Of a DNA stretch of 64,000 nt, positions 20,472 to 40,960 are shown one piece after another; the stretch's first letter is position 1, and every line of letters starts with the position of its first letter. Both the position numbers and the translations under genes were made by a program. The stretch is taken from the sequence record OR352940.1. One strand, given 5' to 3'. The notes beneath the pieces are model-generated. The model was not told where the DNA came from. It worked only from the letters and a program-made list of their open reading frames with translations, and made no database searches. The stretch comes from Escherichia phage AV110.

Positions 20472-20942
20472 TTAATCATGTTTCCACACCCCATCGGTAT
20501 TTGACCAAAGTCGCTGGTTATCTGATCCTCGCCACAGTTTTTTGGTCGGAAGATTTTTCTCATACTTCCCATCAATAATAACATCAACATATTTAAGCAT
20601 TTCTAGTTGTTTAATATCTTCAAACTTATATCCTGTCCACAACCAAATGCTTTTATTTGGATAAAGATTTTTTACTGTTTGAACAATGCAATGAATAACA
20701 TCTCGGTTATCAGGATAGAGAGGGTCACCTCCGGTTATAGTCAATCCTTCTATATAATCATTATTCAAACATTCAATTAATTGTTCTAGTGTTTCGCCAG
20801 TGAATGGAATACCATTTCTAGCATTCCATGTTGATTTATTATAACACCCTTCACATTTATGCAAACAACCTGTAACGAAAAGAACGACCCTGCAACCAGG
20901 GCCATTCACAAAATCGCAAGGATAAAATCTATCATAATTCAT
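20472..20942 (-). CDS. nrdG: anaerobic ribonucleotide reductase activating protein NrdG (radical SAM)
   Basis: 156 aa; CLHKCEGC cluster motif; overlaps nrdD stop. Confidence 0.9.
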   Translation of the reverse strand: MNYDRFYPCDFVNGPGCRVVLFVTGCLHKCEGCYNKSTWNARNGIPFTGETLEQLIECLNNDYIEGLTITGGDPLYPDNRDVIHCIVQTVKNLYPNKSIWLWTGYKFEDIKQLEMLKYVDVIIDGKYEKNLPTKKLWRGSDNQRLWSNTDGVWKHD

Positions 20943-22756
20943 TGGTGTTTAACCCTATGCATGATTTCTTTATTTTTACCGAGATTAAATCCGCGTTCGT
21001 TCGGATTTCCCAAATAACCACAAGTTCTTCTTATTGTGTTCATCTTTTTAGGATCAGTTTCTCCGCAAACTGAACAAACAAATCCATTTTCAGTAGGAGT
21101 CATTTCATGAGTACTTCCGCATGTAAAACATTTATCTACTGGCATATTAACACCAAAATAATCTAAATGTTGTGCAGCATAATCCCATACAGCCTCAAGT
21201 CCCTTTAAATTGTTTTTCATATCTGGAAGTTCAACATAAGAAATGTGACCGCCTGTCGCAATGAAATGATACGGCGCTTCACGAGAAATCTTTTCAAACG
21301 GAGTAATATTTTCTTCTACTGAAACATGGAAACTATTAGTGTACCAGCCTTTATCTGTAACATCTTTTACACTTCCATATTTTTCTGTGTCGAGTTTACA
21401 AAAGCGATAACAAAGGTTTTCAGCAGGAGTAGAATATAAACTAAAAGCAAATCCGGTTCTTTCAGTCCACTGTTTAAGATGAGCATTCATTTTAGTTAAA
21501 ATTTCTTGTCCAATATCACGACCGACAAGAATATTCAATTCGTGAATACCAATGTATCCCAAAGACACTGAACTTCTACCGTTTTTAAATAACTCAATTA
21601 TATCGTCATCAGGTTTAAGACGAACCCCAAATGCACCTTCTTGGTAAAGAATAGGAGCAACAGTCGCTTTAACTCCTTTTAAGGAACTAATTCTACACAT
21701 CAAAGCTTCAAAACACAGGTCCATTCGTTCGTTAAATAGCTCAACAAATTTCTGTTCATTGAACTGTGTTCCAATATAAGAATCTAACGCAATACGAGGA
21801 AGATTCAGTGTTACAACACCAAGATTATTACGTCCATCAAGAATTTCATTACCAGTCGAATCTTTCCATACGCTCAAGAAACTACGGCAACCCATCGGAG
21901 AAACAGGAACTGAAGAACCGGTAATAGCTTTATTATTCTTAACCGAAATAATGTCAGGATACATTCTTTTGCTTGCACATTCTAACGCAAGTTGTTTAAT
22001 ATCATAGTTCGGATCGTCTTTATAAAGATTAACACCTTCTTCAACGAACATAACAAGCTTAGGGAAAATAGGAGTTATTCCATCACGACCAAGACCTTTA
22101 ATGCGGTTTTTAAGAATTGCCTTCTGAATCATTCGTTCAGTCCAATCGGTTCCCGTACCAAATGTAATTGTTACAAAAGGAGTTTGTCCGTTTGAACTAA
22201 AGAGAGTATTTACTTCATATTCATAAGCTTGGAATGCGTCATAGACATCTTTTTCTGTTTTAGATTGAGCATAATTCAGAATGTCTGGTATTTGCCATTT
22301 TTCTGCATCTTCAACATGTTTAGCGTATGTACGTTTAACATAAGGAGAAAGAACTTTATCGACATTCGCAAATGTAGTTCCGCCATACTGATGTGAAGCA
22401 ACCTGTGCAGTAATTTGTGCCATAATTGCAGTAGCAACGCCAATAGATTTAGGCGTTTCAATTTGAGCATTGCCTAATTTAAATCCATTCTCAAGCATCC
22501 CCTTTAAATCGACTAAACAGCAATTGGTAAACGGAAGAGCAGGAGAATAATCAATATCATGCATGTGAATGATTCCGCTTTCATGCGCATTCATAATAAA
22601 AGACGGGACCATATTTTTGGCAATGTGCTTAGACACAATACCAGCCATAAGGTCCCGTTGAGTTGGAAAAACACGAGAATCTTTATTAGCATTCTCGTTT
22701 AAAAGGTCTTTATTAGTTTTATGAATTAATCCTTCAATTTCTTTTTCAATTTTCAT
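20939..22756 (-). CDS. nrdD: anaerobic (class III) ribonucleotide reductase NrdD
   Basis: 605 aa, uninterrupted (no intron); C-terminal Zn-ribbon CxxC..CxxC and glycyl-radical motif RRTCGYLG. Confidence 0.95.
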   Translation of the reverse strand: MKIEKEIEGLIHKTNKDLLNENANKDSRVFPTQRDLMAGIVSKHIAKNMVPSFIMNAHESGIIHMHDIDYSPALPFTNCCLVDLKGMLENGFKLGNAQIETPKSIGVATAIMAQITAQVASHQYGGTTFANVDKVLSPYVKRTYAKHVEDAEKWQIPDILNYAQSKTEKDVYDAFQAYEYEVNTLFSSNGQTPFVTITFGTGTDWTERMIQKAILKNRIKGLGRDGITPIFPKLVMFVEEGVNLYKDDPNYDIKQLALECASKRMYPDIISVKNNKAITGSSVPVSPMGCRSFLSVWKDSTGNEILDGRNNLGVVTLNLPRIALDSYIGTQFNEQKFVELFNERMDLCFEALMCRISSLKGVKATVAPILYQEGAFGVRLKPDDDIIELFKNGRSSVSLGYIGIHELNILVGRDIGQEILTKMNAHLKQWTERTGFAFSLYSTPAENLCYRFCKLDTEKYGSVKDVTDKGWYTNSFHVSVEENITPFEKISREAPYHFIATGGHISYVELPDMKNNLKGLEAVWDYAAQHLDYFGVNMPVDKCFTCGSTHEMTPTENGFVCSVCGETDPKKMNTIRRTCGYLGNPNERGFNLGKNKEIMHRVKHQ

Positions 22757-36768: not shown

Positions 36769-36992
36769 ATGCTGGCTTCTTTTAGATGTTGCTTAGCGTA
36801 CTTAAGAGCCTGCACTACATCCATATCTTCTTTGGTTTGTTGCTCTGTTTCATTTTCTTTCAAGATATATGCTTCTTCAATCAGAGCATCAAACATCAAT
36901 CCAAGACGGACTTCGGCATCTTTAATAGCGTTCACTTTGCCGATTTTGTCATCGGTGTGCGGTTTGTAACCTTTAATATCTTCAATCGACAT
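36726..36992 (-). CDS. hypothetical protein (start trimmed)
   Basis: ORF-track N-terminus overlaps upstream ORF; likely starts at MSIEDIKGYK. Confidence 0.4.
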   Translation of the reverse strand: MSIEDIKGYKPHTDDKIGKVNAIKDAEVRLGLMFDALIEEAYILKENETEQQTKEDMDVVQALKYAKQHLKEASMWACRAVFRPEEKY

Positions 36993-37206
36993 AAGGAATT
37001 TCCTCATCGGTGGCAAGGTCATATTCGACCAATTGGATAGGCTCATTAATACCATATCCACGCACAGTGATATCAGTTGTCGGATAGTTTCCGGTAATAT
37101 CACCCATTCTAAATGCTTCAGTGAATGATTGCTCGCCTGAGCAACTAAACCAGGCGGCAAAACATTTTAAAACATCTTCAGACCCTTCTATAATCAATTT
37201 AGCCAT
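36982..37206 (-). CDS. hypothetical protein (74 aa)
   Basis: ORF. Confidence 0.45.
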   Translation of the reverse strand: MAKLIIEGSEDVLKCFAAWFSCSGEQSFTEAFRMGDITGNYPTTDITVRGYGINEPIQLVEYDLATDEEIPYVD

Positions 37207-37568
37207 TATAGACTCTCAGTAAAGGTACGAGCGATAACGTCGCGCTGCTGTTCTGGAGTCAGAGAGTTAAAGCGAACTGCATAACCGGATACACGAATGG
37301 TCAGCTGAGGATATTTTTCCGGATGCTTAACTGCATCTTCCAGAGTTTCACGACGCAGAACGTTAACGTTCAGGTGTTGACCACCTTCAATTTTAACTTT
37401 AGGTTGATGTTCAATTTCAATTTCACGGGCATTCAAACCGTAGAAAATTTCCGGGTCTACAATAGCGTCTTCTTTAAAAGTCTTAGAGACAATAATCCGG
37501 GCCTGAGTACCGTCTTCAAAATAAATAGTGCCTTTATGCGCACCTTCAAGAATTTGATATGCTTTCAT
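37206..37568 (-). CDS. autonomous glycyl-radical cofactor GrcA/YfiD-like protein
   Basis: 120 aa; C-terminus ...[33 protein letters not shown] carries the glycyl-radical signature RVSGYAV; resembles E. coli GrcA as recalled. Confidence 0.8.
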
Positions 37569-37574
37569 ATAACC

Positions 37575-37883
37575 TCAATTAGAAAATAAATTTATCCAAG
37601 TTTTTTCTTTAATCAAAAATGGGACGGAATTAAACGCCATTAAACTTTGAGTGATTAATCCCTTAAACGGCCCATCAATAAATTCCATTTTGAAATGCGG
37701 AATACTAGTCATCAACCGTGCATTAGGAGCAGTACAAAGAACCTGCTGACCTGCGAACGGGCCTTTAGTCAAACGATATCGTTTAGGTTTAAAATGGTAG
37801 ATCTCGTAATTTTCTACAAGAGCCCTTTTATTGCATACTGGACTGTTATAACAATATTCAAAAACTTCAATAGTGGTCATCAT
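37575..37883 (-). CDS. hypothetical Cys-containing protein (start trimmed to MMTTIEV)
   Basis: ATG overlaps stop of upstream P-loop ORF (ATGA coupling). Confidence 0.4.
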   Translation of the reverse strand: MMTTIEVFEYCYNSPVCNKRALVENYEIYHFKPKRYRLTKGPFAGQQVLCTAPNARLMTSIPHFKMEFIDGPFKGLITQSLMAFNSVPFLIKEKTWINLFSN

Positions 37884-38419: not shown

Positions 38420-38747
38420 ATTATTTCTCTTAAGGTTGGGGCCATTCCATGGCGCATGAATTGTCCATTTCTGTATTTACCCATTACCGCACTTGGGCTC
38501 GACCTTATTACAGGTTGGCGGGAATCCCTCATAGAATCATGAGGTCCAGGTTGTTCCCATTTTATTTGAATGTAAATATTTTTGCCACGCGTTTACGAAT
38601 TATACCAAAAAACACGTGGCAATTCACAGTATTCGGCGATTAAATGTTGATCAGCAAATTTAGATACTAAAGTCAAATTAATATAAGTCATTTACCCATC
38701 CAAGTAATTATGAATATACTATCACAATTCTAGGAGAAAGTAAACTG

Positions 38748-39050
38748 TTATTTACCTTTAATTACTTTAGCTGCTTCGATAGCCGCTTGCTGAAGGTCAT
38801 CCATAGACATACCGAATTTAGAAGCAAAGTTATCAATTTTCTTTTCGACAGCATTCAAAGGCTTGGCCTGTTTACCTTCATTAGCGCCAGGAAGAGCGAG
38901 AATACGCTCTTTGTCAATATAAAGGCTTACAAGTTTCTTACGGTCTTTATCGGACAAATCATGAAATGAATGGGCCTTTTTATTTATAGCGGCTTCTAAT
39001 TTACCTGCACTCACTCGAGCTTCAGTAATAAATTCTTGATATGTTTTCAT
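38748..39050 (-). CDS. capsid-targeted internal protein (IPII/IPIII-like)
   Basis: N-terminal capsid-targeting sequence MKTYQEFITE (T4 IP consensus MKTYQEFIAE, cleaved by prohead protease after Glu). Confidence 0.65.
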   Translation of the reverse strand: MKTYQEFITEARVSAGKLEAAINKKAHSFHDLSDKDRKKLVSLYIDKERILALPGANEGKQAKPLNAVEKKIDNFASKFGMSMDDLQQAAIEAAKVIKGK

Positions 39051-39076: not shown

Positions 39077-39391
39077 TTATTCTTTAGGGAAGTTTTTAGA
39101 GTATGCGTCATAAAGTTTATTACCGATGCGACGGAAAACTTTAGCTGCAAAACGGTTTTCAGGGTTTTTAATCATGATTTGCATCATGTAAGTTCCTGCA
39201 TCCGAAAGAGCTTCTTCATAGTACCCATTAATTTCTTTAAGAGTCCTACGTTTACCACCAGGACCATCGACAGTAATTTTCCATTTACCTGTAGAAGTGC
39301 GGCTCGGTGGCTCAACTTGTTCAATCCAAATATAACCACCTTCAACGCGTTGGTTGGCGGATTCTGCAATAAATTCTTTATACGTTTTCAT
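39077..39391 (-). CDS. capsid-targeted internal protein
   Basis: N-terminal MKTYKEFIAE CTS. Confidence 0.65.
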   Translation of the reverse strand: MKTYKEFIAESANQRVEGGYIWIEQVEPPSRTSTGKWKITVDGPGGKRRTLKEINGYYEEALSDAGTYMMQIMIKNPENRFAAKVFRRIGNKLYDAYSKNFPKE

Positions 39392-39454: not shown

Positions 39455-39715
39455 TTAAGCTTTACCGCCAGAAATAATTCCGAAGTTGTTAAAATCGTAT
39501 CCAATATCGTCAACATCTACTTTAGGACTTGCTACAACATAAGCAATTTCACTACGTTTTGCATAGGTGTTGATTTCTTTACCATCGCCACCTAAGAAAG
39601 AATACCCATTACGTTTTAATGAGCCAAAGTCTTCCGCATCACCAATGAAAGCTTTAACTTTAAATTTAGGACCTTTGGCATCTGCTTCAGCGATAAATTC
39701 TTGATACATTTTCAT
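39455..39715 (-). CDS. capsid-targeted internal protein
   Basis: N-terminal MKMYQEFIAE CTS. Confidence 0.6.
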   Translation of the reverse strand: MKMYQEFIAEADAKGPKFKVKAFIGDAEDFGSLKRNGYSFLGGDGKEINTYAKRSEIAYVVASPKVDVDDIGYDFNNFGIISGGKA

Positions 39716-39721
39716 TTTTCC

Positions 39722-40135
39722 TTAGTAAATTGATTTACCATAGTATTTGTACCAAGTCGGACGTTGAGCAATTTTTTCATCTAAGCGTGCTTGACTTATC
39801 GCAATGGACGCTTCGGACGGGACATAATTATTACGAAATTCGGCAGGGATGTCGGAAATATCCTGGACAGTCGTGTCCTTGATTTTGAAACCACGTTTCA
39901 AGCATTCAGCGATTAGCTCGATTTGTCGTAAACGTAAAAATTCGAGTTTGTCGTAAAAGAATGTTACGTGACCTGTGCCTAAGATAAATGTTGGAGAGAT
40001 TTTAAAATCCTTTACACGTTTACCGTTTTGAACATGTTTACGGACTGCACCAAATACGCGTGGTAATTCACGATACTCAGCCATAAGATGTTGGTCGGCC
40101 AGTTCAGAAACAAGTGTTAAATTGATACGGGTCAT
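39722..40135 (-). CDS. denV: endonuclease V (pyrimidine-dimer DNA glycosylase) DenV
   Basis: Start at [35 protein letters not shown]; near-identical to T4 DenV as recalled. Confidence 0.92.
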
Positions 40136-40193
40136 AATTTCCTCCAAGTAGTTGATGAATGTATAGTATCAAAACCCTTGGAGGAAGTAAACA

Positions 40194-40475
40194 CTATTTT
40201 TCTGAAGCGCCTGAAATATATTTTTCAAGACGTTGTTTCATTAGCGAGCCGTTCTTAGCGATTTCTTCCGGTTTATCGCACATACGCAACAAGGCTTCAA
40301 GCTTAGCGATATCGCTGGTACGTTCAAATTTGCGAGTATCTATCTTACTAGCAAGTTCAGAAATACGTGCTAATAGACTTTCGGCTTCAACCAAAGCTGC
40401 ACCTAGCTTAGTTGCAAATGTGTCAGTAGCTTCGTTAAGAATAGATTCTGATAAAAATTCACTATATGTTTTCAT
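40194..40475 (-). CDS. capsid-targeted internal protein
   Basis: Start trimmed to [13 protein letters not shown]; ATG overlaps lysozyme stop. Confidence 0.6.
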
Positions 40476-40960
40476 ATATACGCTTTCCAAGTTCCTGTTT
40501 TAAATGTTGAGATTACTCGTTTCGCGCGATTAGGTGTCTGACGATACCATTTAGATTGGGCTAGATTTACTGCCGCTTCATCCCAACGTTTCTGTTGAAG
40601 CATACGAAGAGAATTAGTAAAACCGGCGACGCCTGCTACACCCATTTGGAAGACCATATTGACCAATGCACAACGACGAACTGCATCTAAAGAATCATAC
40701 ACCGGTTTAAGTTTAGCATTACCCAAGATTCCGCGAACGGCTTTATCAACGTCTTCATTAAATAGCTTTTCAGCCTCATCAAGGGTAATTGTACCGTTGC
40801 ATTTACGGCCGATCATTCTGTCAAGTTCAGCTTTAGCTACGGCTAAAGACGGGTTCTTTGTTACTAAATGGCCAATGCCAATCGTCCAAAAGCCTTCAGT
40901 GTCTTTGTATAAAGTCAGTCTAAGACCTTCGTCATTACGAAGCATTTCAAATATATTCAT
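40472..40960 (-). CDS. e: endolysin (T4 lysozyme e homologue)
   Basis: Start at [32 protein letters not shown]; catalytic Glu/Asp context; close to T4 lysozyme. Confidence 0.93.

Follow-up and report, generated by a model that had tools for sequence, protein, structure and literature searches.

Within a 64,000-nucleotide (nt) stretch of DNA from Escherichia phage AV110 (OR352940.1; this whole stretch is hereafter called the window), the coding sequence at 37206..37568 on the minus strand is very probably the Mosigvirus copy of the T-even gene vs.6 (Y06I of T4), which would supply a spare part for host pyruvate formate-lyase (PFL), and is best read as an old homolog of grcA whose 3′ ∼175–180 nt were recently replaced by DNA from Escherichia grcA. 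Gene vs.6 is already known, annotated, and biochemically characterized in T4 (as Y06I). The reading frame in the window runs from an ATG start to a TAA stop and encodes 120 amino acids (aa) plus the stop, with a protein mass of 13,784 Da. An earlier note, made from the sequence alone, had proposed a GrcA/YfiD-like glycyl-radical protein at this position; both the position and the family assignment were borne out, although the note mentioned neither the minus strand nor the identity with the characterized T4 vs.6/Y06I.

The encoded protein matched Pfam Gly_radical (PF01228) at 67.3 bits (cut-off, 22.2), aligned over its full length with phrog_1209 (210.8 bits; residues 1–120 on profile positions 1–121), and in a phmmer search of the PDB recovered E. 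coli GrcA/YfiD (6OWR) as the top match (E = 2e-42), followed by pyruvate formate-lyase (3e-26). The two halves of the protein differ sharply in their similarity to GrcA, as the earlier note had anticipated. Residues 61–120, the glycyl-radical domain (codons 61–120; 37209..37388, minus strand), were identical to GrcA residues 68–127 at 60/60 positions, whereas the phage-type N-terminal half (codons 1–60; 37389..37568, minus strand) was a diverged homolog of its GrcA counterpart, its matches to E. coli grcA being limited to 14/40 aa (∼35%) and 60/120 nt in the alignable part (residues 21–60). HMMER paired phage residues 21–60 with GrcA residues 27–67, which indicates that this half is homologous to the GrcA N-terminal region, and among 9 phage and 5 bacterial proteins Q5, K29, D34, and R48 never varied and I6, E49, and P56 hardly did. 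The predicted glycyl-radical site is Gly95 (GGT codon at 37284..37286, minus strand), in the context IRVSGYAV, which corresponds to Gly102 of YfiD and Gly734 of PflB in alignments to 6OWR and PflB. The phage protein shared 49/64 residues with PflB 696–759, including the 13-residue glycine loop; however, its C-terminal domain was closer to GrcA (60/60) than to PflB (48/60). In its structural features, the window protein conforms both to the GrcA-type autonomous glycyl-radical cofactors and to the phage Vs.6 family.

Comparison with known systems placed the protein more precisely. T4 Vs.6 (NP_049730) was identical to it at 112/120 aa (93%; the eight substitutions in T4 are A10T, T21I, A35S, I36F, N46H, H54P, K57T, and R73H), and the T4 gene occupies the same place between vs.5 and vs.7, with a phage-type N-terminal half, an Escherichia-grcA 3′ tract, and the same 5′ junction. 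Like E. coli GrcA/YfiD (P68066; NMR structure 6OWR), the phage protein is a stand-alone protein of ∼14 kDa, although 7 residues shorter, and whereas E. coli grcA sits between ung and eamB, the phage gene lies in an AT-rich lytic gene run. The C-terminal domain of PflB (693–759; PDB 1H16, 2PFL), the portion for which the spare part stands in, belongs to an 85-kDa enzyme, in contrast to the small autonomous phage version. The short proteins GrcA2 and GrcA3 (NCBIfam NF008341 and NF038360; 78–80 aa) match the same C-terminal 60–64 residues (95.7 and 106.6 bits) but lack the N-terminal half; with these scores far under the respective cut-offs (145 and 158), the phage protein belongs to neither. Homologs were found by tblastn in 1,588 phage records, spanning T-even relatives that infect Escherichia, Shigella, Klebsiella, Salmonella, Yersinia, Enterobacter, and Aeromonas, as well as T5-like phages and a jumbo Erwinia phage; a 100% identical protein was encoded in one partial-genome GenBank record. 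The RefSeq product name for vs.6 in Escherichia phage vB_EcoM_JS09 and in T4 is "autonomous glycyl radical cofactor GrcA," and GenBank names for the same gene vary among pyruvate formate-lyase, 2-ketobutyrate formate-lyase, formate acetyltransferase, and hypothetical protein.

Amino acid identity alone is uninformative on the source of the C-terminal half, because its residues are near-invariant across bacteria: in each of 81 grcA genes (E. coli and 80 species-representative genomes), the final 60 residues matched the phage protein at 54–60/60 positions, out to Pasteurellaceae. DNA comparisons were made over the last 60 codons (180 nt) and over a tract core of codons 61–115 (165 nt; 37224-37388 on the minus strand in the window). 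Alignment to host grcA at the DNA and protein levels, the check that the earlier note had proposed, gave 174/180 nt (96.7%) beside the 60/60 aa, and T4 was nearer still to E. coli grcA (177/180 nt). The window tract shared 172/180 nt with Escherichia sp. MOD1-EC7003, 161/180 nt with both Citrobacter amalonaticus and Salmonella, and 145–160/180 nt with most other Enterobacterales, with Pasteurellales and some outliers down to 135. E. coli grcA itself shared 165/180 nt with Salmonella, the amino acids being the same, and 167/180 nt with Citrobacter, and many bacteria with identical 60 residues shared only 135–167/180 nt. The distances were additive (13 differences between E. coli and Citrobacter, 16 or 13 + 3 between T4 and Citrobacter, and 19 or 13 + 6 between the window and Citrobacter), which places the branching of the phage tract inside the Escherichia grcA lineage. 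Within the core, identity to E. coli grcA reached 165/165 in Tequatrovirus OES_C-2, 164/165 in T4 and Shfl2, and 162/165 in the window.

The boundaries of the tract were sharp. Identity to E. coli grcA rose from 49% to 96.7% at a breakpoint after codon 60 (maximum chi-square, 94.3; reached in 0/2000 permutations), and host similarity ended at the vs.6 stop codon, at the junction with vs.5. At residues conserved between phage and host, the codon was identical in 7/14 cases in the N-terminal half versus 54/60 in the C-terminal half (p = 0.002), whereas E. coli and Salmonella grcA showed no such discontinuity (identity of 0.89 and 0.92 in the two halves, respectively). The GC content at third codon positions (GC3) in the window was 0.27 in the N-terminal half and 0.37 in the C-terminal half, and 5/6 differences of the window from the E. 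coli tract were changes from G/C to A/T, a bias that fits drift toward the phage GC content of 37%. When the E. coli tract was compared with all phage records, the matches were bimodal, with 638 at ≥95% (Escherichia and Shigella T-evens), 8 at 90–95%, and 300 at 80–90%. The earlier note had offered either a recent host-derived segment or strong constraint as the cause of the pattern; from these comparisons both hold, with strong constraint on the protein (54–60/60 aa in bacteria) and recent host-to-phage recombination in the C-terminal half (174/180 nt to E. coli).

Purifying selection only, for fit to PFL/PflA, together with shared codon bias and with no recent DNA transfer, is a very unlikely cause of the host-like C-terminus. 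It draws on the conservation of the 60 residues in all 81 bacterial genes from Escherichia to Pasteurellaceae, on their near-invariance in T5-like and jumbo phages as well, and on the biased codon usage of grcA; however, bacteria with the same residues and similar codon bias share 135–167/180 nt with E. coli, compared with 174–177/180 nt for the phages and a complete core in OES_C-2, and the E. coli-infecting homologs that lack the tract (Krischvirus and T5-like phages, 124–131/165) give the baseline expected from constraint alone. The abrupt change in identity at codon 60 also speaks against it, as does the resemblance of Klebsiella phages to Klebsiella rather than E. coli grcA, described below. 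Convergence through codon bias was rejected on related grounds, since bacteria with the same residues and similar bias differ by 8–25% in DNA and the Krischvirus and T5-like genes stand at 124–131/165.

The direction of transfer is from host to phage. Transfer in the opposite direction was rejected because the tract branches from within the grcA lineages of Escherichia and Klebsiella, the distances being additive, because the GC3 of the tract is host-like while that of the N-terminal half is phage-like, and because E. coli and Salmonella grcA are uniformly diverged along the gene. The phage-type N-terminal half together with vs.7 was found in no E. coli genome searched, which likewise counts against transfer from phage to host. 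In the E. coli genome collection, five records had best matches of 95–99% to the phage gene and six matches were on plasmids, none covering 80% of it; they probably represent additional copies or short stretches of grcA/pflB type.

Host DNA is present in phage lysates, and host reads could in principle have polished a phage consensus to near-identity by assembly or contamination. Such an artifact has a negligible probability here, given that the same tract, with lineage-specific substitutions, occurs in 638 independent records, the T4 reference among them. Everywhere it continues the reading frame and meets the phage N-terminal half at one and the same point, and Klebsiella phages have a Klebsiella version.

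The age of the tract was assessed by comparing T4 and window codons for synonymous differences, which amounted to 25/63 in vs.7, 24/55 in vs.4, and 12/52 in the N-terminal half of vs.6, versus only 5/59 in the tract. The contrast between the tract and the flanking vs.7 and vs.4 combined (49/118) was significant (p = 4e-6), and the smaller number of synonymous differences implies that the tract is younger than the split between T4 and Mosigvirus. A single acquisition in the ancestor of T4 and Mosigvirus followed by clock-like decay is disfavored by the same contrast. Two histories fit this result: separate recombination with E. coli grcA in each lineage, or the spread of one converted allele between phages in co-infected cells. 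The N-terminal half of vs.6 was also similar in T4 and the window, at 88% nucleotide identity compared with 70% for vs.7, 65% for vs.4, and about 50% for vs.5; the unusual likeness of the whole of vs.6 suggests recent exchange between the phage genera or unusual constraint.

A parallel replacement was seen in phages of Klebsiella, for which the host grcA was obtained by protein search and contig look-up. Klebsiella Jiaodavirus phages were 93.6–96.5% identical to Klebsiella grcA over 173 nt, versus 85–88% to the E. coli tract, and their cores matched two Klebsiella alleles at 158–160/165, which is within the diversity of Klebsiella itself, as the two alleles are identical to each other at 159/165 (6 sites apart). 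The Jiaodavirus proteins carry the Klebsiella-type residues LLDAVEH, and in phage TU02 the GC3 was 0.22 in the N-terminal half and 0.62 in the C-terminal half, compared with 0.67 in Klebsiella grcA. With the Escherichia and Klebsiella tracts, this segment has thus been replaced by host sequence on no fewer than two independent occasions.

A host-derived tract as a general pattern across hosts was rejected, as Salmonella, Enterobacter sichuanensis, and further phage genera provided no such case. No phage matched the Salmonella grcA tract at ≥95% (the best, at 91.8%, were Escherichia phages), and none matched the Enterobacter sichuanensis tract (best full-length identity, 86%). Homologs from Krischvirus, Slopekvirus, Pseudotevenvirus, Winklervirus, T5-like phages, and the jumbo Erwinia phage shared 124–141/165 with their best bacterial match and had no host-specific tract. 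Within Slopekvirus, Klebsiella phage phiKp_5 has Klebsiella/Enterobacter-type residues (LLDAVEH) and its relative Citrobacter phage Margaery has E. coli/Citrobacter-type residues (LEDAVKH), although neither has a host-like DNA tract (139–141/165); this residue pattern could reflect an old, eroded conversion or convergent amino acid change.

Chances are about even that the radical domain of T-even vs.6 has been repeatedly overwritten by the grcA of the current host genus (Escherichia for Tequatrovirus and Mosigvirus, Klebsiella for Jiaodavirus) while the N-terminal half was inherited within the phages. If so, an enzyme-repair module would be undergoing gene conversion that tracks the host, in lytic phages that contain hydroxymethylcytosine (hmC) and destroy host DNA, and vs.6 would be an enteric counterpart of the cyanophage psbA mosaics discussed below.

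The function of the window protein is approached through its characterized relatives. In PMC8683613 and PMC13450708, which cite Wagner et al. 2001 (BBRC 285:456) for Y06I, E. coli YfiD and T4 Y06I are described as the only spare-part proteins validated by experiment: each receives its radical from the PFL-activating enzyme, associates with oxygen-cleaved PFL, and makes it active again. Gly734 of PFL is both the radical site and the cleavage site, and in YfiD residues 1–60 are disordered while residues 61–127 share the fold of PFL 693–759 (PMC8683613). The window protein should act as Y06I and YfiD do, with Gly95 as the radical site, a function that we infer because the protein is 93% identical to T4 Vs.6 and matches YfiD residue for residue in the C-terminal domain.

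In the mechanism established for YfiD and Y06I and extended to the window protein by orthology, oxygen would cut active host PFL at Gly734 in a microaerobic infected cell, and the 13.8-kDa phage protein would bind the cleaved enzyme, its C-terminal domain (residues ∼55–120, with the fold of PFL 693–759) providing a replacement glycine loop. Host PflA would then place the radical on Gly95, and production of acetyl-CoA and formate would restart. Since a T-even phage stops host expression and degrades host DNA, host grcA would not be inducible, and the phage would therefore bring its own copy, which may keep fermentative production of acetyl-CoA and ATP going through brief exposure to oxygen.

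The N-terminal half of the phage protein invites a different view of its role. In YfiD, removal of residues 1–60 lowered radical installation ∼4-fold and weakened binding to cleaved PFL but left catalysis unaffected (PMC8683613). The phage N-terminal half has diverged from the bacterial one and is conserved among phage genera, and the N-terminal halves of bacterial GrcA are nearly invariant among Enterobacteriaceae; the phage version is thus a distinct, constrained variant. It is conceivable, but improbable, that the main role of the phage protein is to activate or modulate intact, radical-free PFL (or TdcE), with the N-terminal half shifting partner recognition. The control of binding and radical installation by this half of YfiD (PMC8683613) and its strong divergence from the bacterial version, yet retention across phage genera, would agree with such a role. 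Against it, Y06I was reported to behave in vitro like YfiD on oxygen-fragmented PFL (PMC8683613), and the sequence holds nothing that distinguishes activation of intact PFL from repair of cleaved PFL.

The earlier note had further suggested that the protein could rescue either host PFL or the anaerobic reductase NrdD encoded by the phage. Rescue of PFL agrees with what is reported for the T4 orthologue (PMC8683613), but the NrdD part of the proposal was not supported by the sequence. NrdD is encoded where the note had placed it (20939..22756, minus strand; PF13597, 2.5e-171), adjoining NrdG (20472..20942), and a spare part for NrdD, instead of or besides PFL and with a radical from phage NrdG, has some appeal in that the phage encodes both proteins, that NrdD is a glycyl-radical enzyme likewise cleaved by oxygen, and that spare parts for other glycyl-radical enzymes have been speculated upon (PMC8683613). 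However, BLASTP detected no similarity between the window protein and the NrdD of this phage (E = 6.2, in an alignment outside the NrdD glycine loop), and the glycine loops differ (RRTCGYLG in NrdD versus IRVSGYAV in the spare part). The loop and C-terminal region are instead of the PFL type (49/64 to PflB 696–759), the domain copies host grcA, for which PMC8683613 and PMC13450708 give formate-lyases as the only demonstrated partners, and the gene is also present in T5-like phages. With no similarity detected, a different loop, and a PFL-type domain, NrdD was rejected as a probable target, and a role in its repair is thought very doubtful; for annotation, the link to phage NrdD is to be dropped and the partner given as host PFL.

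Several points weigh against reading the gene as a vs.6 spare part with a recently acquired Escherichia tract. The NCBIfam GrcA equivalog model TIGR04365 (spare_glycyl) covered residues 18–120 at 159.1 bits, below its cut-off of 170, a shortfall due to the diverged N-terminal half; by this model, the window protein is a GrcA homolog and not a strict equivalog. RefSeq gives the GrcA name to phage Vs.6 proteins despite this score (159.1 versus 170). The equation of Y06I with vs.6 is drawn from the GrcA name in the T4 RefSeq record and from the single match per record in the listed relatives; the UniProt name presumably makes the same link. Function is assigned to the window protein by orthology, and 8 residues differ from T4 Vs.6, 7 of them in the N-terminal half, while the benefit to the phage in vivo is a proposal. 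The mechanism of recombination is likewise one that we infer: crossover needs residual similarity between phage and host, which fits the 5′ junction at the start of an invariant 10-residue block, but on its 3′ side the tract finishes within the final codons or shortly ahead of them, ≤∼10 nt from the stop, with little homology there for crossover. Finally, lateral spread of one allele and independent conversions are indistinguishable within the Escherichia phages.

Precedent for such mosaics comes from cyanophages. Zeidner et al. in 2005 and Sullivan et al. in 2006 reportedly described intragenic recombination between host and phage in cyanophage psbA and similar metabolic genes. In that system as in the present one, a lytic phage carries a copy of the host part that is destroyed fastest (by light for D1, the psbA product; by oxygen for the glycyl radical), and psbA is a mosaic through exchange with host alleles, as is vs.6. 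Unlike psbA, vs.6 has only a domain of ∼60 codons swapped, encodes a repair module and not a complete subunit, and belongs to phages of enteric hosts. No description of the vs.6/grcA mosaic at the DNA level was found in the literature searched, a search that was incomplete and leaves room for a prior description; the repeated, genus-specific replacement of the radical domain by host grcA is possibly the new element here. The vs.6 tract offers a clean, dated example of sequence flow from host to virulent T-even phage (∼175 nt, with sharp junctions). Should the full data set bear this out, recombination with host DNA would be still at work on the metabolic genes of phages that break down the chromosome of their host, and the tract would be a natural marker of the recent host genus for T-even phages.

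The gene lies within a tightly packed minus-strand gene run in which the order regB, vs.3, vs.4, vs.5, vs.6, vs.7, vs.8 is common to the window, JS09, and T4. The 3 kb around vs.6 were 98.8% identical in nucleotide sequence to vB_EcoM_JS09 (Mosigvirus, an RB69-like T-even phage), and >900 phage records matched these surroundings. Downstream, the ATG of vs.5 (36982..37206, minus strand) overlaps the vs.6 stop (TAATG). Upstream, vs.7 (37575..37883, minus strand), which had no Pfam match, ends in a TGA stop (37575-37577) that overlaps the GAGG ribosome-binding site of vs.6 (37573..37576, minus strand), which was identified by direct reading of the sequence and precedes the vs.6 ATG by 4 nt. A scan for promoters and terminators was uninformative, with 6 promoter-like sites versus 6.9 expected.

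Further along the window, a 32-aa open reading frame (ORF; 38593..38691, minus strand), which JS09 annotates as a separate "endonuclease V" coding sequence, is a duplicated 5′ fragment of denV, ∼1.1 kb from full-length denV (39722..40147, minus strand). Three internal-protein genes lie between the fragment and intact denV, as though their insertion had been accompanied by duplication of the 5′ end of denV. Four small ORFs (38748..39050, 39077..39391, 39455..39715, and 40194..40490, all on the minus strand) share the start MK(T/M)Y(Q/K/S)EF(I/L).E; the listed frame of the last one opens farther upstream, at a TTG, with the motif starting six residues later at an internal Met. Two of the four are called ipII and Ip10 in JS09, and the set differs from T4 ipII/ipIII. 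The N-terminal decapeptide of the four ORFs is presumably the capsid-targeting sequence of T4 internal proteins.

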